DNA from: an uncultured Candidatus Binatia bacterium
Lineage (GTDB): Bacteria > Desulfobacterota > Binatia > Bin18
DNA length: 64,000 bases
Assembly: GCA_965200965.1 (NCBI GenBank)
Contig: OZ241744.1
Coordinates: forward strand, 1,888,001 to 1,952,000
Direction of reading: 5' to 3'
Both the position numbers and the translations under genes were made by a program. Under the pieces are notes generated by a model. That model did not search any database. It was not told the DNA's origin and saw nothing but the letters and a program-made list of their open reading frames with translations. Below, one piece after another: positions 15,770 through 33,208 of the stretch. Every line of letters starts with the position of its first letter. Positions within the stretch are counted from its first letter, which is position 1.

Positions 15770-16369
15770 ATGCGGAGTGCCGCCTGGACCATCGCTTTTA
15801 TCAGTGTTTTGCTCATCGCCTTTCCAGTCTGTTCTGAGGCCGAACCGCCAAGCGGCCCGGTTGTTGTCCTGTCCACCTCAATGGGTGATATCAGGATCGG
15901 CCTGTACGAGAAGGAGGCACCCGAAACGGTCAGAAACTTTCTGGGCTATGTCAACGACGGCTTTTACAACGGCACGATTTTTCACCGGGTGATTGCCGGC
16001 TTCATGATCCAGGCCGGCGGCTTTACCCAAGATATGCAGCAAAAAGAGACAAAGCCGGCGGTCAGCAACGAGGCCGACAACGGGCTCAGAAACGAAAAAG
16101 GAACGGTCGCTATGGCGCGCACCAACGCCATCCATTCGGCCACCTCCCAGTTTTTCATCAACGTCGCAGATAACGCCTTTCTGGACCACCAGGGTCAATC
16201 CAACTTTGGCTATTGCGTGTTCGGCAGGGTGATTGAGGGCCTTGAGGTGGTCGAAAAGATCAAAGGCGTACGGACCGGCCGCCGCGGCATGTACGACGAT
16301 GTGCCCCTCAAGCCGGTGGTGATCCAATCGGCAAGCGTCGAGTCAAGCGCCGGGCCGGCCGACGGCTAG
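15770..16369 (+). CDS. ppiA: Cyclophilin-type peptidyl-prolyl isomerase with signal peptide
   Basis: [28 protein letters not shown]; N-terminal signal peptide. Confidence 0.9.
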
Positions 16370-16388
16370 CCAGACACAAGGAGGATGT

Positions 16389-16883
16389 GTGGTACTACTA
16401 TCAACCTCAATGGGCGATATCACAATCGAGTTGTACGAAAAAGAAGCCCCCCAGACCGTCAGCAACTTCCTGAGTTATGTTAACGAGGGGTTCTTTGACG
16501 GCACGATTTTTCACCGGGTGATTGCCGGCTTCATGATCCAGGCCGGTGGCTTTACCCCGGATATGCAGCAGAAGAGCACCAAACCGGCGATCAAGAACGA
16601 GGCCGCCAACGGGGTGAAAAACGAACCGGGCACAATCGCCATGGCCCGCACCAATGCGGTCGATTCGGCCACCTCGCAGTTCTTTATCAACGTCAAGGAC
16701 AACACATTTCTGGACCACCAGGGCCAAGCCAACTTTGGCTATTGCGTGTTTGGCAAGGTTGTTGAGGGCTTCAATGTAGTGCATCAGATTGAGGCGGTGG
16801 CCACCGGCCGCAACGGCCCGCACGACGACGTACCCCTCACCCCGGTCGTGATTCACGCGGCCAAAGAGCTTGCGTCCGAATAA
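16389..16883 (+). CDS. ppiB: Cyclophilin-type peptidyl-prolyl isomerase, cytoplasmic
   Basis: Same cyclophilin motifs, no signal peptide; exact start uncertain. Confidence 0.88.
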
Positions 16884-18782: not shown

Positions 18783-20942
18783 ATGCACCCTTCCTCAACA
18801 TCCCGACAAAAAATGGGGCTGGGTCCCGGCCGGCGGCTGGTATCTGGCTTGGTGTGTCTAGGCTATCTGCTAGTGGCCGGGGCTCCCGCCGCCCAGGCCG
18901 AGGCATCGGCCAGACCAGACCCGGCCGGCGAGTTGTTTCGGCAGGGCTATCACGCGGTCCAGGCCGGACAGTTCGCCACCGCCCAGCGGCTACTGCAACA
19001 GGCGCGACAAGCCTATCCGCTCCTGGCCGATTACAGCCTGCACTACCTGGCCCAGGCGCAACTCAAGACCGGCCAGTCCATCCGGGCAAAACACACTTGG
19101 CTGCGCCTGCTCAGCGAGCATACGGGCAGTCCGTGGCGCGGACACGCCAAGCTGGCTTTGGCCCGGCTGGCGCAGGCAGAAAAAAACTGGCCCGAGGCCC
19201 TGCGCTATGCCGACCGGGCACACAAGGCTGAGGTGAAGTCGGTCCGGCACGCGGCCAGCCTCATTGCGGCCCAGGCCCAGGAACACACCGGCCGGCCCCA
19301 CGCGGCCTATGCCTTGTATCAGCAGTTGCGCCGCGCCGCGCCGCTGTCCGCGGCCGGTCAAACCGCCAAAACACACGCCCTGCGGCTGCGCCGGACGGCT
19401 GCGCTTCAGCCCAAGGCGGCGGCGGACTATATCGAAGAAATGCAGCTCCTCGTCCTGGAGGCTGACCAGCCAGCCCTGGCCGCCCTGAGTCGGCAGTTCA
19501 AGCAGCGCTTTGGGCTGAGCCGGCTCTCGACCCCACAACTCCGAGCCGTGGCCACACTCTATCGCGCCCAGGGCCGGACCCAAGACGCGGCCGCGGCCCT
19601 GCAAACGCTGGTCAAGCGATCGCCGGGCAGCGCCAGCGCCTTATACCGCTGGGCCAGACTGCTGTGGAACGCCGATCAGGACGGGCCGGCGCTTGACCTG
19701 TTTGAGCGCCTAGTCAACACCTTCCCCCGCCACCGGCTGGCGGCTGAGGCGCTGTACGCCATCGGTCGCATCCATCAATCGGGCAAGGACGAGACGCGCG
19801 CCAGCCGTGTCTACCGGCAGTTGGCCGAGCGCTTTCCCGCAAGCGCGGCAGCCCAGGACGGACGCTGGCGTCAGGGTTGGATGGCCTATCAGCGCGGAGA
19901 TTTTGGCCAGGCCGAGCAGCACTTTGCCGGCCTCGTCCGCCTGCTCCCCAACGGGGCGGCCAGCGCCCTGTACTGGCAGGCGCGCAGCCTTGACAAACAG
20001 GCCAGGCGCGACCGGGCAGATGCGCTCTACCGCCGGTTGTTACAGGATGAGGCCGGGGGATATTATGCCTTGTGGGCGGAAAAACGACTCGGGCTGAGGC
20101 CCCTGCCGCTGGCCCTGGCCGCCCAGCCCGAGGGCCGCAGCCCGGAAGGAGAGAACGTGTCGCCTTCCTCTCGACCGGATGACATGTTCACTCCTCCGCT
20201 CTCGCCACGCCTGAGTGTCTACTATCAGCGCAGCCAGGCCCTTGCCCGGCTTGGGTTGTTGGAGTTCGCCCGGCGCGAACTCGATCGTCTCAAAAAGGCC
20301 GCCCCGAGCGGCCCGGCCTTTCGGCGGTTTTTCCTGCGTGAGTACCACCGGCTGAACAGCCACCACCGTGCGCTACGCTTGGCCCAAGCCTTGCCGGCCG
20401 GCGAACGCCGGCCCTACGACTTTCCGCGCGCCTACTGGCCGGCCCTCCAGACCCATGCCCGGGCCCAGCGGCTCGACCCCTATCTGGTGCTGGCCCTGAT
20501 CCGCCAGGAAAGTCTGTTTGACCCCCGGGCCGTCTCTCCGGCCCGCGCTTACGGCCTGATGCAGCTCTTGCCGAGCACCGCGGCAAAGCTGCTTGGGCCG
20601 GGCATGGAGTTGCGGCTGACAGACCCCGACCGGAACATCGAACTCGGCACACGCTACCTGCGCCAGCTGCTCGACCGCTACAACGACAACCTCATCCTGG
20701 GGCTTGCCGGCTATAACGCCGGACCACAGGCGGTGGACAAGTGGCGCACCCGCTTCCCGTACGCCGAGGCTGACGAGTTTGTGGAAAACATCAGCTACCG
20801 CGAAACCCGCGATTATGTCAAAAAAGTGCTCCGCAATTATCGGACCTATCGACGGCTGTACGAGCCGGCAGGCGTCGTCAGCCGGCTGGGCCCACAGGCC
20901 CAGCCGGCACAACACGGGAGGAAGACCGAATGGCACAACTGA
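18783..20942 (+). CDS. slt: Soluble lytic transglycosylase with TPR superhelix
   Basis: ALIRQESLFDPRAVSPARAYGLMQL, AGYNAGP, ETRDYVKKV; TPR-like N-terminal region; carries a 17-aa repeat-derived insert. Confidence 0.9.
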   Translation: MHPSSTSRQKMGLGPGRRLVSGLVCLGYLLVAGAPAAQAEASARPDPAGELFRQGYHAVQAGQFATAQRLLQQARQAYPLLADYSLHYLAQAQLKTGQSIRAKHTWLRLLSEHTGSPWRGHAKLALARLAQAEKNWPEALRYADRAHKAEVKSVRHAASLIAAQAQEHTGRPHAAYALYQQLRRAAPLSAAGQTAKTHALRLRRTAALQPKAAADYIEEMQLLVLEADQPALAALSRQFKQRFGLSRLSTPQLRAVATLYRAQGRTQDAAAALQTLVKRSPGSASALYRWARLLWNADQDGPALDLFERLVNTFPRHRLAAEALYAIGRIHQSGKDETRASRVYRQLAERFPASAAAQDGRWRQGWMAYQRGDFGQAEQHFAGLVRLLPNGAASALYWQARSLDKQARRDRADALYRRLLQDEAGGYYALWAEKRLGLRPLPLALAAQPEGRSPEGENVSPSSRPDDMFTPPLSPRLSVYYQRSQALARLGLLEFARRELDRLKKAAPSGPAFRRFFLREYHRLNSHHRALRLAQALPAGERRPYDFPRAYWPALQTHARAQRLDPYLVLALIRQESLFDPRAVSPARAYGLMQLLPSTAAKLLGPGMELRLTDPDRNIELGTRYLRQLLDRYNDNLILGLAGYNAGPQAVDKWRTRFPYAEADEFVENISYRETRDYVKKVLRNYRTYRRLYEPAGVVSRLGPQAQPAQHGRKTEWHN
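20146..20196 (+). repeat. 51-bp palindromic element, copy 1 (in-frame in slt)
   Basis: AAGGAGAGAACGTGTCGCCTTCCTCTCGACCGGATGACATGTTCACTCCTC. Confidence 0.9.
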
Positions 20943-21751
20943 GTGGAAAAGTTGCCCTCGTCACCGGCGGCGGCCGGGGCATTGGACGGGGAATCAGCCT
21001 AGCCCTGGCCACGGCCGGGGCCGATGTAGCGATTGCCGACATTGAACAGCTGAGCAGCAGCGCCCAGCAGTACCAGAATACGGCAGTCGGTGGACTAGCC
21101 GCCGCCCAACAGACCGCCGGAGAACTCACACGCCTGGGCCGACGGGCCATCGTCCTCCAGGCCGACGTGACCAGAAAAGCCGATGTTCAGCGCATGGTTG
21201 CCGAGACGGTTGAGCAGCTGGGCGACCTCCACATCCTGGTCTGTAACGCCGGGGTGGTGAATATCGGCCAAGTCGAAAGCCTGACCGAAGAGGCCTGGGA
21301 TGTGACTTTCAGCGTCAATGTCAAAGGTGTGTTTCTGTCCTGCCAAGCCGCTATCCCGGTCATGCAAGCGCGGGGGGACGGCTGCATCATTAACATTGCC
21401 TCGGTGGCCGGCAAGAATGGGGCAGCCGGCCTAGCCCACTACTGCGGGTCAAAGTTCGCGGTGGTGGGTTTTAGCAATTCCCTGGCCAAAGAACTCGCGC
21501 CGGCCAACATCCGGGTCAACGCGATTTGCCCCGGCATTCTGCGCACCCAGATGTGGGAGTACTTGGCCGAGACCATGAAGCGCGGCGACGAAACAAAAGA
21601 AGATGCCTGGCAGCGTTACCTCAGCAGCCTGATTCCTCTGGGTCGGGCCCAGACACCGGCCGACATCGGTCAACTGGCGGTCTATCTGGCTACTGCCGAA
21701 AATGTCACCGGCCAAGCCATGAATGTGGACGGCGGGATGGAACTGCACTGA
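20930..21751 (+). CDS. SDR family oxidoreductase (acetoin reductase-like)
   Basis: TGGGRGIG, CNAGV, YCGSK, VNAICPG. Confidence 0.9.
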   Translation: MAQLSGKVALVTGGGRGIGRGISLALATAGADVAIADIEQLSSSAQQYQNTAVGGLAAAQQTAGELTRLGRRAIVLQADVTRKADVQRMVAETVEQLGDLHILVCNAGVVNIGQVESLTEEAWDVTFSVNVKGVFLSCQAAIPVMQARGDGCIINIASVAGKNGAAGLAHYCGSKFAVVGFSNSLAKELAPANIRVNAICPGILRTQMWEYLAETMKRGDETKEDAWQRYLSSLIPLGRAQTPADIGQLAVYLATAENVTGQAMNVDGGMELH

Positions 21752-21807
21752 GCAGGCCGCAGCTGCCCACAGCCGGGGAGCGTAGGCCGCTTCTCTCACG
21801 AGCTGGC

Positions 21808-22710
21808 ATGACGCATGCGCATCACTCCACAGTCCCGAACTACAACCGGGCCTTCGCCGTTGGGGTGTCGCTCAATGTCGGCTTTGTGATTCTTGAAGCG
21901 GTCTGTGGCATTGCGGCCGGCTCGCTGGCGCTGGTGGCAGACGCCGGACACAATCTGAGCGACGTGGCGAGCCTGCTCCTGGCCTGGGGGGCGAGTGTCC
22001 TAGCCGCGCGTAAACCCACGCCGAGGCGCAGCTATGGGTTTCGGCGGGGGACAATTCTGGCCTCGCTCCTCAGCGCCCTCCTGTTGCTGACGGCTCTGTG
22101 CCTTATTGCCTGGGCGGCCTTCGGACGGCTGTCCGCTCCCCACCCGGTGAGTGGCGGCACGATTCTTGTCGTGGCCGGCGCAGGGGTGGTGGTGAATGCG
22201 GCAACGGCCCTGCTGTTTGTGGCGGACCGCAAACGCGACCTCAACATTCGGGGCGCGTATCTGCATATGGCGGCCGATGCCGGGGTATCGCTGGGGGTGG
22301 TGGCGGCGGGCATCGCCATCATGGCCACCGGCTGGCTGTGGCTGGACCCGGCGATCAGTCTGCTCATCAGCGCTCTTATTCTTGTCAGCGCGGTGGGCCT
22401 GTTGCGCGACTCGGTGAATCTGGCCCTTGATTCGGCACCGGCCGATATTGATCCGCTGGCGGTTGAAGCCTATCTGAGCGGCCTGCCGGATGTGACAACA
22501 GTCCACGATCTGCATATCTGGGCGATGAGTACGACCGAGGTGGCCCTGACCGCCCATCTGGTCGTCCCGCAGCACTTGACCGATGCGGGTTTTGTCCACC
22601 GCATCTCACACCGGCTGCACGACCGCTTTGGGATTGACCACGCGACCTTGCAGATTGAACGGGGCGAGGAAGAGGAATTCTGTAAACAGGCCCATCCGGA
22701 AAGCGTCTGA
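21808..22710 (+). CDS. czcD: Cation diffusion facilitator (Zn/Co/Cd efflux)
   Basis: SLALVADAGHNLSD, NIRGAYLHMAAD, HDLHIW, HATLQIE. Confidence 0.88.
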   Translation: MTHAHHSTVPNYNRAFAVGVSLNVGFVILEAVCGIAAGSLALVADAGHNLSDVASLLLAWGASVLAARKPTPRRSYGFRRGTILASLLSALLLLTALCLIAWAAFGRLSAPHPVSGGTILVVAGAGVVVNAATALLFVADRKRDLNIRGAYLHMAADAGVSLGVVAAGIAIMATGWLWLDPAISLLISALILVSAVGLLRDSVNLALDSAPADIDPLAVEAYLSGLPDVTTVHDLHIWAMSTTEVALTAHLVVPQHLTDAGFVHRISHRLHDRFGIDHATLQIERGEEEEFCKQAHPESV

Positions 22711-22722
22711 GGCGACATGCGC

Positions 22723-24165
22723 CTATGCGGCGGATTCATCGAGGGCGGCCAGCAATTTGCGCGGCAGGCCGCCAAACGCCCCGTTCGACATAATCAGCAC
22801 CACGTCTCCCGATTGGCAGGCCTCGGTCAGCAAGGCGCATATGTCGTCCACGCTGTGGCCCTGGCGGGCCGGCTTGGCCGCGGCCCGCAGGTCGGCAACC
22901 AGTTCAGCCGGGGAGAACAGGTCGTGGGCGGTGAGCGGGTCTTGGGGTTTGCTGAAAACCGGGCCGATCATGACCTGATCCGCGACGGCCAGGGCACGGG
23001 TAAGCGGCTGCTGGAAAATACGCCGGCGGCAGGTGTTGGAGCGCGGCTCAAAGACCGCCCAGACCCGTCGCCGGGGATAGCGCAGCCGCACCGCTTCGAT
23101 GGTCACTGCGACCGCGGTTGGGTGGTGGGCAAAGTCATCAATAATCGTCACCCCGCGCGCTTCTCCGACCAGTTCCTGACGGCGCGCCACGCCCCGAAAA
23201 CTGGCCAGACCCGGTGCGATCTGCTCGGCGGACAGGCCGAGCGCGGAGGCCAGGGCGACCGCGCCCAGAGCGTTCCGGACATTCATCCGGCCCAGTGAGG
23301 GCAGGGAAAAGCGGCCACGCTCCCGACCGTGGTAGAACGCGCTGAAGGTAAACCGGCTGCCGTCGTCAAGTGCGTCCCGGGCCTGCCAGTCGGCCTCGGG
23401 GTGAAAGCCAAAGCTGGCGAACTCGCCCCGATACGAGCCGGCCAACTCCAGGGTAGCGGGGAAATCATGGCAGAGCAGGACCGGGGCGGCGGCTGGAACA
23501 ATGGCCAGCAGGCGACGAAAAGCCGACTGGATGTGGGCCAAGTCAGTGTAGATATCGGCGTGGTCAAACTCCACCGCGTTGAGCAACACCGCCCTGGGCC
23601 GGTAGTGCAGAAACTTGGGACCCTTGTCAAAAAAGGCCGAGTCGTACTCATCGCCCTCAATCGCAAAGTACTTGCCGGTCCCGATCTGATAGCCCCGTCC
23701 GAAATTCTGACTGACCCCGCCGACCAGGAAGCTGGGCTGAAGCCCGGCCCGTTCCAGCACCCAGGCCAACAGGGCCGTAGTGGTGGTTTTGCCGTGCGTG
23801 CCGGCCACTACCAGAGGCCGCTTGTCGGCCAGAAAAAAGTCGGCGATGGCCTGCGGAAAGGACAGGTACGGAATCGGGGTTTCGAGCAGTCTGTGGACCT
23901 CCGGGTTGGTGCGTGACACTGCGTTGCCAACAACGACCAGATCGGGGGCGGGGGTTAGATTGTGGGCGTGATAGCCCGCCATCACCGCAATACCGGCCTC
24001 GGCCAGAACCTCGCTCATCGGCGGGTAGACCCCCTGGTCTGAGCCGCTGACCCGATAGCCCCGCTCTTTGAGCATGACGGCCAGGGTTGCCATGCCGACA
24101 CCAGCAACGGCAATCAGGTGGATGTGCGCACCGGGGGGGGGCGGCTGGGGGGTGCTGTCAGGCAT
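22723..24165 (-). CDS. mpl: Murein peptide ligase (UDP-MurNAc:tripeptide ligase)
   Basis: GSDQGVYPPMS, AGTHGKTTT, EGDEYDSAFFDKGPKF, DDFAHHPTA, FEPRSNT, MSNGAFGG. Confidence 0.93.
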   Translation of the reverse strand: MPDSTPQPPPPGAHIHLIAVAGVGMATLAVMLKERGYRVSGSDQGVYPPMSEVLAEAGIAVMAGYHAHNLTPAPDLVVVGNAVSRTNPEVHRLLETPIPYLSFPQAIADFFLADKRPLVVAGTHGKTTTTALLAWVLERAGLQPSFLVGGVSQNFGRGYQIGTGKYFAIEGDEYDSAFFDKGPKFLHYRPRAVLLNAVEFDHADIYTDLAHIQSAFRRLLAIVPAAAPVLLCHDFPATLELAGSYRGEFASFGFHPEADWQARDALDDGSRFTFSAFYHGRERGRFSLPSLGRMNVRNALGAVALASALGLSAEQIAPGLASFRGVARRQELVGEARGVTIIDDFAHHPTAVAVTIEAVRLRYPRRRVWAVFEPRSNTCRRRIFQQPLTRALAVADQVMIGPVFSKPQDPLTAHDLFSPAELVADLRAAAKPARQGHSVDDICALLTEACQSGDVVLIMSNGAFGGLPRKLLAALDESAA

Positions 24166-25276
24166 GGTTCACTCCTCTCCTCGTGCCAAGCGCGGCGCGC
24201 ATCACGGCGTCGTGCAAGCGCGGGCGGAAAGAGCGGATAGCCGTATTGTTGCGGCTGGGATGAACCCGGTTGGTGAGGAGGATGACATGGACCTGGCGTT
24301 CCAGATCGATCCAGACCGAGGTTCCGGTAAAGCCCAGGTGGCCGACCGAGTGGGCAGAGAACAATTCGCCGGCGCTTGAGCCCTGGGCCGAGCGCGTATC
24401 CCAGCCGAGCGCCCAGCTTGAGCCGGGCACTTGGCCGTCGCGTGTCCAGCACTCGCCGAGCAGCTCCGCGGGCAGAAAAGCGTGCCGGCCGTGATAACAG
24501 TCCACTAGGCGGCTGACCAAACGGTCTACATCGTCCAGGCTGGAAAACACCCCGGCGTGGCCAGCCACCCCGCCCATGACATAGGCGTTCTCGTCGTGGA
24601 CCTGGCCGCAGACCACCCGCCGGCGCCACGCACAGTGCTCGGTGGCGGCAATGTCGTGCGACACAGCCTGGCCGGGCGTGTCCAGATTCACGAAGGTAGT
24701 GGCGGGCAGCCCCAGGGGAGCGAAAACAGACCGCTGACAGTACACGTCGAGGGCTTGGCCGCTCAGCCGTTCAACAAGGGCACCGAGCAGCATAAAGCCG
24801 AGGTCGCTGTACACCGCCCGCTCGCCGGGCGCGGCGGCGAGCGGTTCGCGCCCGATTTGGGCGTATACCCATTCGCGGGCCGCGCGGGGAGCCGGGCCGC
24901 TGATCGCCTCAAAATAGGGACGCCAAGCCGGCAGACCGGACCTGTGGCTCAAGAGGTGACGGACCGTGACCCGGTCTTTTTGCCGGCCCTGAAAATCGGG
25001 CAGAAAGCGGCAGACCGGGTCGTCAAAATCCAGCTTGTGTTGAGCGATGAAGCGGAAGACGGCCAGGCTTGTCGCCAGCGGCTTGGTAAGCGAAGCGAGA
25101 TCAAACAGGGTCTCGACGGTCAGCGGAAGGGGCTGCGGCTCAAGACACCGAAACCCGACCGCCCGACGATAGACGACCGCGCCGGCCCGTCTTACCAGTA
25201 ACGCACCGCCGGGGAAGACGCCCTGCTCAACCGCACATGCGAGCAGGCTGTCAACCGGGGAAAAGTCCATCTTCAT
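24158..25276 (-). CDS. Serine hydrolase, beta-lactamase/AmpH-like
   Basis: DLASLTK (SxxK), YSDLG, GHAGVFS, GHLGFTGTS. Confidence 0.9.
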   Translation of the reverse strand: MKMDFSPVDSLLACAVEQGVFPGGALLVRRAGAVVYRRAVGFRCLEPQPLPLTVETLFDLASLTKPLATSLAVFRFIAQHKLDFDDPVCRFLPDFQGRQKDRVTVRHLLSHRSGLPAWRPYFEAISGPAPRAAREWVYAQIGREPLAAAPGERAVYSDLGFMLLGALVERLSGQALDVYCQRSVFAPLGLPATTFVNLDTPGQAVSHDIAATEHCAWRRRVVCGQVHDENAYVMGGVAGHAGVFSSLDDVDRLVSRLVDCYHGRHAFLPAELLGECWTRDGQVPGSSWALGWDTRSAQGSSAGELFSAHSVGHLGFTGTSVWIDLERQVHVILLTNRVHPSRNNTAIRSFRPRLHDAVMRAALGTRRGVNHA

Positions 25277-25293
25277 ATGCCCCAGGCCGGCCC

Positions 25294-26205
25294 TCAGACC
25301 ACCGCCGGCTCCAAAAAGCGCAACTCTTGCCGCTCTGTATCAAGGCGAACCCGCGTGCCGAGCGGTAGGGCGAAGTTCTCTCCCCCGTGCCCGGCCGGCA
25401 GCCCAAACCCGACCGGATAGGCGTAGTCGGCAAAGATATCCTCGATAACGGCCAGCAGTGGGCCGAGCGTATCGTCCGCTTCCCAGCAGCGGCTCATCTG
25501 GCCGAAGATCACGCCGGCCAGCCCCTCAAGTTTGCCGGCCTGTTTGAGTTGGGTCAGCATCCGGTCCACCCGATACGGCCGCTCGCCCACGTCCTCAAGA
25601 AACAGCACGCAGCCGCGTGTATCGACCGCAAACGGCGTGCCCAGCGTCGCCGTCAGGACGGACAGACAGCCGCCGATCAGCCGCCCTTCTGCCACGCCCG
25701 GCCGGACAAGCGTGGGGAAGGCCAAGCGAGTCTGGCCGGATCCGTGGCTGAGCAGGCCCAGCAGGTGGGACCTGGAGCAGGCCGATAGACCGGTGGCAAA
25801 CTCGCCGGCCACCAAGGGACCATGAAAGCACACAAAACCTGCCCGTTGGACAAGGGCGTTCAGCAACAGCGTCACGTCGCTGTAGCCGAGAAAAATTTTT
25901 GGCCGTAGGGCCAGACGCCGAAAATCGAGCCGGGGCAGCAATCGTCCGCTGCCATAGCCAGCCCGCGAACAGAAGATTGCCCTGACCGTGGGGTCGCCAA
26001 ACATCTCGGACAGATCTTGGGCGCGCTGACTATCCGTCCCGGCCAGGAAACGGTGGCGGTCCAGGACGCGCTGGCCGCGGCGGACGACAAACCCCAACTC
26101 TTCCAGGGCGTGGCAGCCGCGACGGAGCCGTTCCGCGTCTACCCCGGCGGCCGGAGAAATGACCCCGATACAATCACCGGGCCGCAGCCGGGGAGGTTTG
26201 TTCAC
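25294..26205 (-). CDS. ldcA: LD-carboxypeptidase (peptidase S66)
   Basis: RAGYGS, GYSDVT, LEDVGERPYRVDRML, AGHG; GTG 26205, alternative GTG 26265 lies inside the repeat. Confidence 0.9.
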   Translation of the reverse strand: MNKPPRLRPGDCIGVISPAAGVDAERLRRGCHALEELGFVVRRGQRVLDRHRFLAGTDSQRAQDLSEMFGDPTVRAIFCSRAGYGSGRLLPRLDFRRLALRPKIFLGYSDVTLLLNALVQRAGFVCFHGPLVAGEFATGLSACSRSHLLGLLSHGSGQTRLAFPTLVRPGVAEGRLIGGCLSVLTATLGTPFAVDTRGCVLFLEDVGERPYRVDRMLTQLKQAGKLEGLAGVIFGQMSRCWEADDTLGPLLAVIEDIFADYAYPVGFGLPAGHGGENFALPLGTRVRLDTERQELRFLEPAVV

Positions 26206-26219
26206 AGTGGACACGCATC

Positions 26220-26270
26220 GAGGAGTGAACGGGCCGCCTTCCTCTCGACCGGATGACACCTTCACTCCTT
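26220..26270 (+). repeat. 51-bp palindromic element, copy 2 (thrS/ldcA junction)
   Basis: GAGGAGTGAACGGGCCGCCTTCCTCTCGACCGGATGACACCTTCACTCCTT. Confidence 0.95.
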
Positions 26271-28115
26271 ATCAAAGCCACGCGCATCTTCTTCTTGCAA
26301 CTGATTGACAAACTGCTCAACGGCCAGCACCTCGTTCTTGCGCGAGGTGCTTGTGCGCGAGGAGTGAACGGGTTGCCTTCCTCTCGACCGGATGACACCT
26401 TCACTCCTTACCGACACGGTGTTGTTGCCGGCTTCTTTGCCGCCGACAATCAGCAGGTAGGGGATACGGTGGGGGTGGGCTTTATGGATTTTGGCCGACA
26501 GCGGCTCAGAACTGGTGTCCAGGCTGACCCGCAAACCGCGTGCCACCAAGCGCTGACACACCCCGTCGGCGTAGTCCTGGAAGCGATCGCTGACTGGCAA
26601 GACCCTGGCCTGTTCGGGGGCCAGCCAGACCGGGAAGTGGCCGGCGCAATGTTCAATCAGCAGGGCCATGAAGCGCTCGATCGCGCCATAAATGGCCGAG
26701 TGGATGACGACCGGTGTTTGCAGCGAGCCGTCGGCGGCGGCGTATTTCAGATCAAAGCGTTGCGGCATCTGAAAATCGACCTGGGTCGTGGCCAGTTGCC
26801 ACGCCCGGCCCAGCGTGTCTTTCACGTCGATGTCGATCTTCGGCCCGTAGAACGCTCCTCCGCCCCTATCAAGCTGATAGGGAATGTTCTTGTCTTCCAG
26901 GAGAGCTTGGAGGGTGGTTTCCGCGGCGTCCCACAGGCTTCGGTCGCCCATGAAGTTGGCGGGCCGGGTGGAGAGTTTGCAGGAATAGTCCAGGTCAAAG
27001 GCACGATACACCCGGTTGATCATGTTGAGCAGGCGTTCAATCTCGGCCGGGACGTGCTCCTTGGCGACAAAGATATGCGTATCGTCCTGATGAAACATGC
27101 GCAGACGGGCCAAGCCGGCCAGGGTGCCGGACAGCTCGTTGCGGTGTAAGGCGCTCTCGTCATGGATGCGCAGCGGGAGGTCGCGGTAGCTCTTGGTCTT
27201 CAGCTTGAAGATGCTCATGTGGACCGGGCAGTTCATCGGCTTCAGCCCGTAGGCCCCGCCCTCTTGGTCGATCAGGAACATCTGGTCTTTGAATTTCTCC
27301 CAGTGCCCTGAGGTCTCCCATAGGCTCTGGTGACACAGCACCGGGCCCCGCACCTCTTGATAGCCCTCGGCCTTGAGCAGCTTGCCCATGCGGTCTTGCA
27401 GGAGCTTGTAGACGGTCAGGCCCTTGGGCAGCAGGACCGGAGAGCCGGGGCTGAAGGGAAACAGGGCAAACAGTTCCATGTCCTGGCCGATTTTTCGGTG
27501 GTCGCGCCGCTCGGCCTCCTCAAGTCGCTCGAGGTACTCGTGCAGATCGCGGGCGGTCTGCCACACTGTGCCATAGATGCGCTGCATCTGGGCCTTATTG
27601 GCATCCCCCCGCCAGTAGGCCCCGGAGATTTTGAGCAGCTTGAAATGGGGTAGCTGGCCGGTCTGCTGGACATGGGGGCCGCGACACAGGTCAACAAAAT
27701 CACCCTGTTTATAGATTGAGCAGGTATCAAGCCCCAGGTCGCGCATGATTTCCAGCTTGAAGGTCTGGCCGCGCTGGCCGAAATGGTCCTCAGCTTCTTG
27801 CCGGGACCAGTTCTCGTGCAGAAAGGGCAGGTCGGCCGCAATGTTGGCCCGCATCCGCTCTTCAATCCGCGCCAAGTCCTCGTCAGACAAAGGCTGGGGT
27901 GTTTCAATGTCGTAATAGAACCCGTTTTCTACGGCCGGCCCGACCCCCAGCCGGCTGGCCGGAAAAAGTTCCAGTACTGCCTGGGCCAGCACATGCGCGC
28001 AGGAGTGGCGCAGGCAGTGCAACTCGTAGTCCTGGTCGCTGGCAAAATCTTTGCGCTCTAACTCGTGGGACTCGCTGGGGAGGCTCTGCGGACTGTCGTT
28101 TTTCGCTTCGTTCAT
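26262..28115 (-). CDS. thrS: Threonine--tRNA ligase (no TGS domain, 17-aa C-terminal insert)
   Basis: RHSCAH, DLCRGPH, GAYWRGD, RDHRKIG, KPMNCP, GAFYGPKID, ERFMALLIEH. Confidence 0.96.
   Translation of the reverse strand: MNEAKNDSPQSLPSESHELERKDFASDQDYELHCLRHSCAHVLAQAVLELFPASRLGVGPAVENGFYYDIETPQPLSDEDLARIEERMRANIAADLPFLHENWSRQEAEDHFGQRGQTFKLEIMRDLGLDTCSIYKQGDFVDLCRGPHVQQTGQLPHFKLLKISGAYWRGDANKAQMQRIYGTVWQTARDLHEYLERLEEAERRDHRKIGQDMELFALFPFSPGSPVLLPKGLTVYKLLQDRMGKLLKAEGYQEVRGPVLCHQSLWETSGHWEKFKDQMFLIDQEGGAYGLKPMNCPVHMSIFKLKTKSYRDLPLRIHDESALHRNELSGTLAGLARLRMFHQDDTHIFVAKEHVPAEIERLLNMINRVYRAFDLDYSCKLSTRPANFMGDRSLWDAAETTLQALLEDKNIPYQLDRGGGAFYGPKIDIDVKDTLGRAWQLATTQVDFQMPQRFDLKYAAADGSLQTPVVIHSAIYGAIERFMALLIEHCAGHFPVWLAPEQARVLPVSDRFQDYADGVCQRLVARGLRVSLDTSSEPLSAKIHKAHPHRIPYLLIVGGKEAGNNTVSVRSEGVIRSRGRQPVHSSRTSTSRKNEVLAVEQFVNQLQEEDARGFDKE
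26359..26409 (+). repeat. 51-bp palindromic element, copy 3 (in-frame in thrS)
   Basis: GAGGAGTGAACGGGTTGCCTTCCTCTCGACCGGATGACACCTTCACTCCTT. Confidence 0.95.
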
Positions 28116-28129
28116 GGGCGTCTGTCGTC

Positions 28130-28180
28130 AAGGAGTGAACGGGCCACCTTCCTCTCGACCGGGTGACACGTTCACTCCTT
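28130..28180 (+). repeat. 51-bp palindromic element, copy 4 (thrS leader)
   Basis: AAGGAGTGAACGGGCCACCTTCCTCTCGACCGGGTGACACGTTCACTCCTT. Confidence 0.95.
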
Positions 28181-28245
28181 GTTGTGGTGGAGTGTATTCA
28201 GCCCGTCAGCGTATGTGAAAAAAAGCGGACGATCAAGACAAGCCA

Positions 28246-29334
28246 TTAGAAGAGCACGCTGAACCCCTCGCGCTCTCGGCCCCTCTGCTCAGTCAGAAAC
28301 CCGCGGGCACCCGTATACACCCCGGCCGGATAGAAGAGATAGCCCTCAATGTAGGTACCGGGCGCTAAGGTCTGGTTGGCCAGGGGCGGCTGGGGCAGGG
28401 TGTGCTCGGACGCGCTGGCCGGCTTTACCCGCCGGCCTGAATCGGCCAGCAGAACGATATTGTCGGTTTCCAGCAGATAGGCGTCGGTGGTTGAGTTGAA
28501 AACCGTAATGCGGACCGCAAGCAGCTCGGCCGGCATATCACCAAGCTGGCGTGTCACATCTGCCGGGAGCAGGGGCACAATGCCAATCTGGACCTGGTCC
28601 ATGTTGGCGACCTGGGTCTGGTGGTGGGGAGACTGAAGGTAGGCAAACTCATCCACTACCGCTCGGAACATGGCCTCAAACCCGCGCTGGAAGTCCGAAA
28701 GGGCGTCATAGAAGCCAGAGCCGGCGGCCATCAGTGGGCTTTCAGAGCTGGTATCAATGATGACCCGGTTGCGCTCTACCTCACAGGCGATGGTCAGCTC
28801 GAGCGGCTTCTGCCCGGGCTGCTCACCCCGAATCCGGCCAACTCCGCCCAGAGCCGCCGGCCGATAGGTCGTCACCGCATAGCCGGCCTTTTCAACGGCC
28901 TTGCGCATGATGCGGTTGGCCTGCTCACACGGCGGAATACGCGCCCGGGGAGCGACGTGGACACCGTCGGCAGTGCAGGAAATCGTGACCGACACGGGCT
29001 CGGGTTCTCCCCAGAAGCCCATGCGCTGGGCGGTGATGGTGCTCGGAACATGTTGCCTTCCGGTATCGGCCGGCGGGGGCGCGTCGGCCACCTTGTAGTA
29101 CAGCCGTTCAAGCGCCCGCCGGGTGATCCGGTGCGCCTCCTCACAGCCCATCTGGGGTTCGTTGATATCGAACTCGGTGGTCTGTTCCCCCCGCTGGCGA
29201 GCCTCCCCGCGGCCCGGTTCTGGCACGGTGGCTTGTGTGGTCTGCTCGGCCGGCTGTTCCACGTTCTGTCCACAGCCGCCAACCGCTACGATGACACCCA
29301 CACTACACAGCAGGTTCTGGACGGCTTTTTGCAT
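28246..29334 (-). CDS. Hypothetical lipoprotein with internally duplicated Cys-containing module
   Basis: Lipobox-like VGGC; CEEAHRITRRALE and CEQANRIMRKAVE repeats; GGGGAG RBS. Confidence 0.7.
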   Translation of the reverse strand: MQKAVQNLLCSVGVIVAVGGCGQNVEQPAEQTTQATVPEPGRGEARQRGEQTTEFDINEPQMGCEEAHRITRRALERLYYKVADAPPPADTGRQHVPSTITAQRMGFWGEPEPVSVTISCTADGVHVAPRARIPPCEQANRIMRKAVEKAGYAVTTYRPAALGGVGRIRGEQPGQKPLELTIACEVERNRVIIDTSSESPLMAAGSGFYDALSDFQRGFEAMFRAVVDEFAYLQSPHHQTQVANMDQVQIGIVPLLPADVTRQLGDMPAELLAVRITVFNSTTDAYLLETDNIVLLADSGRRVKPASASEHTLPQPPLANQTLAPGTYIEGYLFYPAGVYTGARGFLTEQRGREREGFSVLF

Positions 29335-29380: not shown

Positions 29381-29451
29381 ATAGGTCGGCCAGCCATCCG
29401 GCGGAAGCCGACACCCCGTTCTGTCGGATTACGCTGCGCTCATCCGACCTC
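29381..29451. repeat. REP/REPIN-like element, copy A (degenerate ends)
   Basis: ATAGGTCGG...CATCCGACCTC; about 50-bp core identical to copy B. Confidence 0.8.
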
Positions 29452-30214: not shown

Positions 30215-30287
30215 GTAGGTCGGCTTAGCCCTCGGGCGGAAGCCGACACCCCGTTCTGTCGGATTACGCTGCGCTCATCCGACCTAC
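30215..30287. repeat. REP/REPIN-like element, copy B (GTAG...CTAC)
   Basis: GTAGGTCGGCTTAGCC...GGATTACGCTGCGCTCATCCGACCTAC; two inverted GTAG-type REP hairpins. Confidence 0.85.
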
Positions 30288-30501: not shown

Positions 30502-31824
30502 TCACGGGTTGTTGCGCTTGCTAAGGTCGGCAAGCCCACGTTCCATCTTAGCCGCGGTGTCTTCGTCACCGGCCTCTCGGGCCAAGGCAAGCGCCTTCTC
30601 AAAATCCCGCCGGGCCTCGTTCACCCGGCCCAATAGATCGTTAGCGGCACCCCGATTGTAATAGGCAGCGGCTAAGTTCGGGTCAAGGCGGAGCGCTACG
30701 CTGTAGTCCGCAATGGCGGCTTCATGATCACCAAGTTTGTTCTTCGCATTGCCCCGGCTGGTGTAGGTTTCGGCATCGTTCGGGTCAAGGCGGAGCGCCA
30801 CGCTGTAGTCCGCAATGGCGGCTTCATGATCACCAAGTTTGTTCTTCGCATTGCCCCGGTTGGTGTAGGCACCGGCTAAGTTCGGGTCAAGGCGGAGCGC
30901 CACGCTGTAGTCCGCAATGGCGGCTTCATGATCACCAAGTTTGTTCTTCGCAACGCCCCGGTTGGTGTAGGCACCGGCTAAGTTCGGGTCAAGGCGGAGC
31001 GCCACGCTGTAGTCCGCAATGGCGGCTTCATGATCACCAAGTTTGTTCTTCGCAACGCCCCGGTTGGTGTAGGCACCGGCTAAGTTCGGGTCAAGGCGGA
31101 GCGCCGCGGTGTGGTCCGCAATGGCGGCTTCATGATCACCAAGTTTGTTCTTCGCATTGCCCCGGTTGGTGTAGGCAGCGGCATCATTTGGGGTGAGATG
31201 GAGCACCTTAGTGTAGGCATCTATCGCCGCTTCGTAATCGCCCTTTTCACCGTAGAGATAGCCAACGGAGAACCACGCCCGCGCCCCAAACTCTCGATCG
31301 ACGCTTTCAACCTGCTCAGCAATAGAACGCCACCTTCCGATGTGATCATCGCTCTTTTCCTCCTGCTGGGCCGAGGGAGAGGCCGGCGATTCTACTGCCT
31401 GGCGTACAGCCCGAGCGACCTCCAGAAAACCCTTGTCGTGTATCGATGGTGGCTCGTGCTCCACCACGGGCTTGCCGTCGGTGGGAACTGCCTCCAGTCC
31501 GCCGAATTGCGCTGCTTTCCAATCGCAGGGTCTCAGGATTACCGGGATCACGCACGCTGTCCCTTGCGCGTGTCGTTTCATCGCGATCTGCGTTTCCTTG
31601 TAGCAATAGTCTGAGGCAAGAAAGTCAGCGCTGACCAGGAGGAGGATGATATCCGCAAGATTCAAGGCATGGTTGATATAGTGGTCAATCTCTCCGCCAG
31701 GCGGAATGTTTCGATCATGAAAAATGTTGATTCTGCCTTGGCGACGAAGGAGGGCCAAGTGCGTTTCCAGTTTCTTCCAAAGAGCCTCGTCCTTGTGAGA
31801 ATAGGATATGAATACGTTTCTCAT
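30502..31824 (-). CDS. TIR domain + tetratricopeptide repeat protein
   Basis: VFISYSHKD...ADIILLLVSADFLASDYCYKE...VIPVILRPCDW (TIR_2-like) followed by about 7 TPRs (AYTNRGxAKxxLGDxEAAIADY). Confidence 0.92.
   Translation of the reverse strand: MRNVFISYSHKDEALWKKLETHLALLRRQGRINIFHDRNIPPGGEIDHYINHALNLADIILLLVSADFLASDYCYKETQIAMKRHAQGTACVIPVILRPCDWKAAQFGGLEAVPTDGKPVVEHEPPSIHDKGFLEVARAVRQAVESPASPSAQQEEKSDDHIGRWRSIAEQVESVDREFGARAWFSVGYLYGEKGDYEAAIDAYTKVLHLTPNDAAAYTNRGNAKNKLGDHEAAIADHTAALRLDPNLAGAYTNRGVAKNKLGDHEAAIADYSVALRLDPNLAGAYTNRGVAKNKLGDHEAAIADYSVALRLDPNLAGAYTNRGNAKNKLGDHEAAIADYSVALRLDPNDAETYTSRGNAKNKLGDHEAAIADYSVALRLDPNLAAAYYNRGAANDLLGRVNEARRDFEKALALAREAGDEDTAAKMERGLADLSKRNNP
30670..31180. 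repeat. Five near-identical 102-bp tandem repeats encoding TPR units
   Basis: Unit GGCTAAGTTCGGGTCAAGGCGGAGCGCC...GGTGTAGGCACC recurs with 102-bp period. Confidence 0.92.
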
Positions 31825-31858
31825 CTGCTCTCCTTGCACGGCTTGTATTGTACATTTT

Positions 31859-33208
31859 CTATGATGGAGGGCTACCTGCATGGACGCGGATTTGGCCCGA
31901 GAGGAGCTTGGGCAGCAGGGTATCCCGCAGGGCGGCGAGGGTCCGGGATTGGACAGCCACGGAAATGTTCTTCTCAAATATGGCGGACAGAAGACCATTG
32001 GCTGCCATCAGAAGCCGCTCCTCTGGAACCGCGCACAACGCCTCACTCAAATGCTGACGCTTGATATGCCCCATCGTTGTCGCCTTCCCCGCAGCAATAG
32101 CCTGGAAGGCGGCCAGATGACCCCGCAGGCAAGGCAGCAAAAACCACTGCGGAAATCTCGGCGAAGTCACCTTGAACAGATGTTGGTTCAGAGCGGCTCG
32201 TCCTCCGTACCAGACCTGCACCAGGAGGCTGCCCGACCAAGAGAAGATGATATCTCCATCGTCAATCACACAGTCAGGCGCAAGCTTGGCCGTAGCCCAT
32301 TCTCCGCTATCCGCCGTCCCGCTTCTCAGTTGGGCAATTTTCACCACAGGTAAACGGTCCTCGTCTTGCTGGGGTCTATATTGCTGGAGGGCAAGGCCGT
32401 TCCGAAAGACGGCGATCTCGTCAAGGGGCTTGACCGTCCACCCGGCGGGAATCGGCCCCAATGCCGAGTCTACAAAGCGATCGGGGAATAAGGCTGCTAG
32501 GGCCGGCTCCAGCCGGTCCAGATAGGCCCGGGCCCGGGCCACCGGCCATGCACTTCCCCCTGGAGACGCGCGTTGTGTGAGGGCGGCTTTGGCCTGCACG
32601 GGATCAAAGTTGATGAACCACGAGGTGAACAGCGCTCGGGCCATCTCGTCAAGGGTGGCGTTCATGCGCCGGTTGAGGGCGATCTTGTCGTCGAGCGTGC
32701 CCAGCAGGTGAGCGATGGCGCGCTGTTCAGGGAGAGGGGGTAGAGGAATCTGCCACTGGCTGAATGTCCGTGTCGTGATGGTCTCGAAGACAGTTCCATA
32801 GTTCAGCACCCGCATTGCATCTGCCGTGCCCTTCAAGGCATAAAACAGAAAGTCGTTATCGAGACCATCGTGGGGGACAAGGGCATAACACGTCTGGTTA
32901 AACGCCATATCTTGGCGAAGCTGAGCCAAAGCGCCCACCGTGCCGCGCGCGGTTATGATTACCGTGCCTTCAGGCATCCGTTTTGCCGAACTGGATTTCA
33001 GGCCCTTTTCTGTAATGTACTCGTGCGCTTGTTCCACATACCGGCCTGACGTGTTGGCGATATCTTTTGCCGTGACCCACGGAATGGTTCCACGCCAGTA
33101 TTCTGCTACACGGCGGCTCGGCGTCCCCCCTATCACGGCACTGGCAACTGCAGACACCCGCACTCTTTGCCACTCGTCCCGTATTCCCCCTTTCTGCGGC
33201 ACTACCAC
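31859..33208 (-). CDS. hsdS: Type I restriction-modification specificity subunit (orphan)
   Basis: GGTPSR...IPWVTAKD TRD, PPLPEQRAIAHLLGTLDDKIALNRRMN spacer, LAALRDTLLPKLLSGQI C-terminus; start uncertain. Confidence 0.9.
   Translation of the reverse strand: MVVPQKGGIRDEWQRVRVSAVASAVIGGTPSRRVAEYWRGTIPWVTAKDIANTSGRYVEQAHEYITEKGLKSSSAKRMPEGTVIITARGTVGALAQLRQDMAFNQTCYALVPHDGLDNDFLFYALKGTADAMRVLNYGTVFETITTRTFSQWQIPLPPLPEQRAIAHLLGTLDDKIALNRRMNATLDEMARALFTSWFINFDPVQAKAALTQRASPGGSAWPVARARAYLDRLEPALAALFPDRFVDSALGPIPAGWTVKPLDEIAVFRNGLALQQYRPQQDEDRLPVVKIAQLRSGTADSGEWATAKLAPDCVIDDGDIIFSWSGSLLVQVWYGGRAALNQHLFKVTSPRFPQWFLLPCLRGHLAAFQAIAAGKATTMGHIKRQHLSEALCAVPEERLLMAANGLLSAIFEKNISVAVQSRTLAALRDTLLPKLLSGQIRVHAGSPPS

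Follow-up and report, generated by a model that had tools for sequence, protein, structure and literature searches.

Four hairpin copies at the slt and thrS loci

The 64,000-nucleotide stretch analyzed here (the window; contig OZ241744.1, positions 1,888,001 to 1,952,000) derives from the 3.62-Mb genome of an uncultured Candidatus Binatia bacterium, designated G000, and harbors four copies of a 51-bp palindromic element which lie within or beside genes for a lytic transglycosylase (slt), threonyl-tRNA synthetase (thrS), and an LD-carboxypeptidase (ldcA). These features are listed by window coordinates, together with the C that lies at position -4, counted reading toward the element on either strand.

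18783 to 20942, + strand: slt-like host gene, encoding a TPR plus SLT-domain lytic transglycosylase
20146 to 20196, + strand: element copy with A...C termini, inside the slt-like gene, where it is read in the sense frame and adds 17 residues, matched by a 17-residue gap in the protein alignment; C at -4 at 20142 (+)
25294 to 26205, - strand: ldcA, LD-carboxypeptidase (S66), from the GTG common to the sister genome; the longest open reading frame (ORF) begins at 26265, within an element copy
26220 to 26270, + strand: element copy with G...T termini, at the thrS/ldcA junction, giving thrS its stop codon on the - strand; C at -4 at 26216 (+)
26262 to 28115, - strand: thrS host gene, threonyl-tRNA synthetase (ThrRS), the sole full-length match in the genome
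26359 to 26409, + strand: element copy with G...T termini, inside thrS, a blunt insertion; C at -4 at 26413 (-)
28130 to 28180, + strand: element copy with A...T termini, 15 bases 5' of the thrS start; C at -4 on both strands (28126 and 28184)

An earlier reading of the letters without database searches (the sequence-only reading) had reported these four copies, each of 51 bp and in one orientation, along with the peptides that they insert into the slt and thrS products, and all of this was verified exactly. The hairpin that it described also stands, but its dimensions (arms and loop of about 17 each) give way to a stem of 15 to 16 bp, usually with a mismatched terminal pair, and a loop of 19 nucleotides, while the near-invariance ascribed to the loop holds among the four local copies but not for the family at large. 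Similarly, the statement that only three of the six reading frames are free of stops applies to three window copies but not to the slt copy, which has four open frames, nor to the family, in which five frames are often open (in 49 to 89 of 93 copies) and four are in repeated use.

The window copies fold as hairpins (z-scores of -2.1 to -5.4, with 0 to 6 of 200 shuffles folding equally well), and in the predicted thrS leader the dominant fold is the hairpin formed by the copy at 28130 to 28180. Contigs from four other sequencing runs cover all of the copies, the slt copy being spanned whole and the rest in overlapping pieces, and the copies are therefore not assembly artifacts; several of the runs holding this sequence are labeled as sponge metagenome, and no RNA run was present among those listed. 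The projected gap in the sister genome, G007, is 0 for the slt copy and for the copy at 26220 to 26270, and at the copy inside thrS 6 of 6 congeners are shorter by exactly 51 bases. An N-terminal extension of LdcA through the copy at 26220 to 26270 is possible, and is placed no higher because the GTG common to the sister genome sits at 26205, downstream of the element.

The insert in ThrRS sits in the anticodon-binding domain and begins at the codon that precedes an invariant Arg (R570, which corresponds to position 609 of 1qf6 in the alignment), its first bases restoring an Arg at that spot. We take this residue to be the equivalent of an anticodon-reading Arg, a role for which the literature search gave no confirmation.

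Hairpin structure and distribution of the family

The family extends far beyond the window. An iterated nhmmer search of G000 returned 115 non-overlapping matches at E<1 (110 at E<0.1); 109 of the 115 measured 51 bp, while a reversed-genome control gave a single match at E 7.3; the existence of about 100 copies thus bears out the family that the sequence-only reading had predicted from four. The set used for statistics comprises 93 of the 100 51-bp matches with E<0.01, seven being dropped for having fewer than 10 of 15 stem pairs. Across the 15 stem positions 92% of the pairs are formed, and 199 double changes were counted, compared to 67 in shuffles and far fewer with the partners slid; the aligned copies demonstrate maintenance of the stem by compensatory changes. 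Within the alignment of 68 copies from which a covariance model was built, G4:C48 is the only invariant pair. The terminal bases of the 93 copies are mostly mismatched (G...T in 30, A...C in 26, A...T in 18, C...T in 8, and G...C in 4), and their combinations exceed independence (P = 2e-5), yet the terminal G/A state does not track core similarity, 27 of 56 nearest neighbors agreeing.

A second hairpin subfamily of about 46 bases, with a GACCGGTC-type loop, was also observed. Three of its copies end AATG...CATT/CATC, not AAGG...CCTT, and retain the C at -4. The copies located are as follows:

G007, contig C1, near 41602, 138849, 192979, 706699, 920678, and 1024535; G000, contig C1, 2384728: copies of the subfamily of about 46 bases

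Copies in G000 are clustered locally, with 34 of 92 intercopy gaps below 5 kb compared to 11 at random, and neighboring copies are more alike than expected (10.7 versus 15.2 differences; 0 of 5,000 permutations). Their density is highest around the GC-skew minimum, from which the position of the replication origin was deduced, 45 of 93 copies lying within 450 kb of it against 23 expected. The common orientation of the window copies is a local chance, since 32 of 68 near pairs agree in orientation.

The covariance model, whose match counts are lower bounds with both strands counted, matched 28 of 55 genomes of the family, including 6 of 7 congeners and 21 of 28 genomes of a second genus, while no match was obtained in 19 genomes from eight other genera of the family or in 133 sampled genomes from outside it. 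The congener G004, which is the next closest by thrS and 99% complete, had no model match, though relatives on both sides match. In the second genus a 54-base form with conserved arms and variable loops occupies 41 of 57 sites (distinct sites, retained from 77 after removal of shared ones; one is from the congener G002), and the modal lengths of 51 and 54 are both multiples of three. A genome-collection scan yielded one match, the sister genome, and a metagenome scan yielded four, two of them with the short inner stem alone. A viral collection gave 25 arm matches and no whole element, and an Rfam search of window positions 20000 to 28400 gave no match.

Insertion is blunt and lineage specific

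For comparison with the sister genome, contig C1 of G007 was used in full; it comprises 1.96 of about 3.6 Mb and averages 87% identity over its first 1.2 Mb. Both flanks of 73 of 110 G000 copies were located on this contig, and the projected gap was 0 at 29 sites, 50 to 51 (a common copy) at 8, and -1 at 2, the remaining gaps taking other values in diverged spacers. G007, in turn, carries copies of its own where the G000 site is empty, and in a related species from run X14 net 51-base gaps were found at three of five copies. A target-site duplication was considered and rejected on the basis of the empty sites: flank repeats of one, two, and three bases (30, 10, and 5 of the 93 copies) fall within the shuffle range (means of 21.9, 6.5, and 1.6; maxima of 34, 14, and 6), none of four or more bases occurs among the 93 copies, and a hidden 1-base duplication is compatible with 32 of 82. 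The compared sequences demonstrate that the element inserts bluntly, with no target duplication.

These empty orthologous sites, together with exact 17-residue gaps in orthologous proteins, uphold the view of the sequence-only reading that this is a nonautonomous mobile hairpin whose triplet length aids its survival in genes. At one locus (L165:3269) the terminal bases of a copy are G...C in G000 and G...T in strain X11. The same tRNA gene is flanked by a copy in G000 (C1:3254063) and in G007 (C1:1664771), with opposite loops and positions about 3 bases apart, reflecting either a flip or two insertions; a search for in-place loop flips returned candidate sites that were offset or non-orthologous, with no flip joint among those listed for strain X11.

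Copies within genes

According to a purpose-built hexamer gene caller, 44 of the 93 copies lie inside genes, 10 overlap a gene end (8 of which supply the stop codon), and 39 are intergenic. The colonization of genes envisaged by the sequence-only reading is, therefore, real as to in-gene copies, but a preference for genes is not, given that 83% of the genome is coding (P = 4e-15); the copies inside genes are thus survivors of selection. An alignment to G007 was possible for 26 of these, 19 of which show exactly 17 extra residues, the orthologs lacking the inserted stretches, which are predicted peptides. Host proteins include ThrRS, a GHMP kinase, the ATP synthase delta subunit, MreD, and Cas3. 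The orientation of copies relative to neighboring genes is random. With respect to the transcribed strand, the ratio is 15:15 in genes and 15:4 toward the template strand in codirectional gaps, the latter being confounded by purine-rich leaders.

A C at position -4 of the junctions

At least one flank carries C at -4 in 86 of the 93 G000 copies, where 49 would be expected (P = 9e-17), and neither flank does so in 7. The rule applies to 42 of 44 in-gene copies and to 44 of 49 copies outside genes, and it recurs in 21 of 23 G007-specific copies (P = 1e-4; 18 shared or ambiguous positions having been removed by hand), at 15 of 20 sites from other relatives, and at 42 of the 57 second-genus sites (P = 1e-4), including 33 of 44 sites not used before. 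The signal is one-sided: the two flanks are negatively associated (Fisher P = 1e-4), and only 1 of the 57 second-genus sites has the C on both sides. A palindromic target was rejected. Where C occupies -4, T is found at -5 in 40 of 91 cases versus 20% (P = 2e-7). Of 272 3' ends of the element itself, 263 have C at -4, mostly as TCCTT, TCCTC, or TCTTT (TCYTY), and joining such an end to the element's own 5' start would read TCNTT^A or TCNTT^G.

The rule is not an alignment artifact because unrelated microhomology-free indels do not show it (25 of 41 versus 21.8 expected). A looser indel set that did (30 of 37) was rejected; it held related hairpins and misplaced borders, and the signal was gone under strict filters.

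Topoisomerase I as a candidate mobilizing enzyme

Topoisomerase I (TopA) of Escherichia coli is described as making a single-strand cut 4 nucleotides after a required C, within the motif TCNTTA/T, and as staying on the 5' end (PMC9352719); R169, R173, and Y177 are reported to read the C (PMC3467081). G000 encodes one type IA enzyme, in which the C-reading residues are in register with those of E. coli TopA, and the remaining positions of the E. coli motif (T-5, T-2, T-1, and A+1) are matched at the element's own ends but only in part at landing sites. TopA-mediated, homology-independent (illegitimate) recombination is known in E. coli (Bierne 1997, as cited in PMC6819513); there it is described as an accident that makes deletions, whereas here the same kind of joining is proposed as the replication route of a heritable element.

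It is, therefore, proposed, at about even chance, that host TopA excises this gene-less 51-base hairpin as single-stranded DNA and inserts it elsewhere in that form. In a transiently single-stranded region, the hairpin would bring both element borders together, whereupon TopA would cut each border 4 nucleotides after a C and be held to the 5' ends as a phosphotyrosine. Bound TopA might then misrejoin the ends, so that the hairpin would leave the donor strand and could be joined into a TopA nick close by, with replication making the new copy permanent. Selection would purge most in-gene copies, while the 17-codon length would allow others to be retained, either as inserted peptides or as new stop codons. 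The broader proposition, that this may be a minimal form of selfish DNA without a transposase, whose two termini would each be a cleavage site for topoisomerase I and which would commandeer essential TopA for its copying, is given somewhat less than an even chance.

A number of observations weigh against this proposal, beginning with the target itself. Landing sites match the E. coli motif in part, at T-5 and the pyrimidine at -1, whereas -2 is G in 43% and T in 23% and +1 is A in 20%; the C is missing from 15 of the 57 second-genus sites, where enrichment at -1 and -3 (43 and 41 of 57) equals that at -4. Generic indels show no TopA footprint at their flanks. E. coli TopA cleavage rises upstream of active genes (PMC9352719), yet copies are not in excess between divergent genes (9 of 39 versus about 11.6 expected from lengths). 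TopA is present in 54 of 55 family genomes, yet only two genera carry the element, and no match came from the close congener G004. Conservation exceeds 90% at several inner positions of the stem and loop, for which TopA alone does not account, and the non-inheritance of the terminal G/A mismatch is likewise left unexplained. Nine copies checked in a conspecific strain of about 98.5% identity were all present, so that the element may no longer be spreading and its enzyme may have been lost. The transposase search described below did not cover IS1, IS6, IS30, IS66, ISL3, IS1380, IS982, Tn3, TnpB, or Cas1, and the case for TopA is built on a sequence signature. It is because of such counterevidence, including the partial target motif, and of enzyme loss as a live option, that TopA is placed no higher and a lost HUH enzyme is retained as its chief rival.

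Alternative mobilizing processes

No match to PF01797, PF01609, PF01548, PF00665, PF00239, PF13359, PF13358, PF12784, PF00872, or PF12762 was obtained in G000 or G007, in searches whose controls worked, and both genomes hold many lineage-specific copies despite the absence of matches to these ten transposase, resolvase, and nuclease families. A self-BLAST of G000, read by eye, revealed no obvious multicopy transposase, and a Pfam analysis of 94 proteins (88 of the 119 listed near fetched copies plus six window genes) found no transposase between arm pairs or near half copies. Two tyrosine recombinases in G000 are presumed to be XerC/D. The statement of the sequence-only reading that neither a consistent target duplication nor a transposase is visible accordingly holds among the families searched.

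A dedicated HUH (Y1) transposase of the REP-associated tyrosine transposase (RAYT; REP, repetitive extragenic palindromic) or TIRYT kind, lost or intermittently supplied and acting by single-strand peel-and-paste, is considered rather unlikely. HUH chemistry, as set out in PMC3333891, likewise yields blunt, duplication-free, one-sided insertion, and the conserved inner bases would suit a dedicated binder. The inner arm resembles the TIRtron motif GGGGWSAS (PMC3733652), GGACAC occurring in the second genus and the full GGGGACAC in a few copies, a comparison at the level of motifs; TIRtrons, in addition, have a TIRYT gene between their repeats, and none is flanked here. RAYT-like genes occur in some carriers, and a REP-like repeat (6 matches in G000 and 4 on contig C1 of G007) persists in G000 without its Y1 transposase, so that loss of the enzyme is a live option. 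Such losses would, however, have to be repeated and recent. The element was absent from all 30 Y1 loci fetched, 7 of them from high-copy carriers (carriers have further Y1 matches), and of the 24 genomes with at least 19 model matches, 14 had no Y1 transposase match and 10 had one. Moreover, linear pairing of element bases 1 to 3 with target positions -1 to -3 is at or below chance, there is no replication-strand bias (33:31), and the C^T rule known for the RAYT of E. coli (PMC3333891) applies at only 16 of 93 empty sites (10.4 expected). The RAYT/IS200 partner suggested by the sequence-only reading was searched for and not found; the junctions suggest a different type of enzyme.

The local clustering and similarity of neighboring copies, their enrichment at the GC-skew minimum, the covarying arms, and the non-inherited terminal state would also be compatible with a process that involves no strand-transfer enzyme, in which template switching or break repair at forks copies the hairpin nearby, homogenizes its arms, and flips its loop. 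This is judged improbable, since the exact length and ends of the element, junctions free of microhomology or duplication, and a one-sided C at a fixed position would all require a nuclease whose cut is measured from a given base.

It is also quite improbable that the element is a miniature inverted-repeat transposable element (MITE) whose arms are the terminal inverted repeats of a DDE transposase with a blunt target cut. The transposase of Spy-type transposons cuts its target bluntly, terminal inverted repeats are strongly conserved in the second genus, and relatives carry many DDE elements; however, no DDE family was found in G000 or G007 among those searched, no element was present at 10 DDE loci, and in G000 no transposase gene was found to lie between a pair of arms. 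The target is, furthermore, one-sided and not palindromic, the arms covary freely, and no target-site duplication occurs.

That the hairpin is a host-selected signal (an RNA hairpin or protein-binding site) and not a parasite is highly improbable, since copies in leaders such as that of thrS and the eight that supply stop codons are set against lineage-specific positions, random orientation to neighbors, depletion from genes, and the lack of an Rfam match.

The single reverse transcriptase gene of G000 (C1:2404925-2406298; L148) is interrupted by a stop codon, whereas its counterpart in G007 is open. As a mover it was set aside, being broken in G000 and belonging to a Pfam family that also matches in element-free G004; the element was absent from three reverse transcriptase loci.

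Relationship to known palindromic elements

In-frame palindromes are known from Rickettsia and elsewhere (PMC10969869, PMC3733652, and PMC3116915). Rickettsia palindromic elements (RPEs; PMC10969869 and PMC3733652) are likewise gene-less palindromes which lie in frame in unrelated genes and add peptides. By description they are set apart, at about 150 bp and in Rickettsia, from the present family of 51 to 54 bp in a different phylum, whose junctions were measured here and obey a rule indicative of an enzyme. REPINs and GTAG REPs with their RAYT (PMC3116915 and PMC3333891) share two inverted arms, nonautonomy, and a proposed single-strand phosphotyrosine chemistry, but the present element has no unpaired GTAG tag, no linked RAYT, and no mainly extragenic location, and its junctions obey C at -4 instead of C^T. 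CGTC REPs (PMC3733652) similarly have no dedicated transposase and also occur inside genes; they possess an unpaired CGTC/TGTC tag, an 8- to 9-bp stem, and a loop of 4 to 5 nucleotides, whereas the CGTGTC word of the present element is paired within a stem of 15 to 16 bp that bears a 19-nucleotide loop. Nonautonomous IS200/IS605 derivatives (IS608; PMC3333891) resemble it in the lack of target duplication and in a one-sided target determinant, but no guide-target pairing, lagging-strand bias, or Y1 TnpA in the genome was found here.

The family is apparently undescribed, of a known kind, and the proposed mechanism apparently lacks precedent: a literature search, which left most subscription journals outside its reach, found no paper on this hairpin family or on a TopA-mobilized element.

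Additional features of the window and genomes

The ThrRS encoded at 26262 to 28115 shares 88 to 93% identity with those of six congeners, 46% with that of the congener G002, and 45 to 49% with those of the remaining family, and it is shorter at the N-terminus; thrS is possibly a replaced gene. The matched core of topA measures 1,290 bases in G000 and G007, 1,356 in four congeners, and 1,395 in G004, which suggests in-frame inserts; one such topA locus of genus g1 (L283) was scanned and held no copy of this element. The cas3 gene of G000 (C1:2840128-2842941; L168) contains three in-frame copies, each in a different frame, and several CRISPR-like arrays are present in this genome. The remaining features of the window are as follows:

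15770 to 16883: two tandem genes, 79% alike over 300 bases, which by resemblance we take to be cyclophilin-like
29392 to 29450 and 30227 to 30285: two copies of another, REP-like repeat
30502 to 31998: ORF of 498 residues, presumably a TIR-domain and TPR protein by resemblance, with six 102-base tandem repeats at 30539 to 31344

Implications

The movement of gene-less palindromes such as RPEs and CGTC REPs is an open question, and the junction rule described here both names a candidate enzyme and can be checked computationally on any orphan repeat family. If the TopA proposal is true, an essential housekeeping protein would also serve as a transposase, one that the host is unable to discard, and ThrRS and other core proteins would gain new peptide loops by this route. 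The same route could, in that case, explain other orphan bacterial palindromes, RPEs and CGTC REPs among them, that are without a known mobilizing enzyme.

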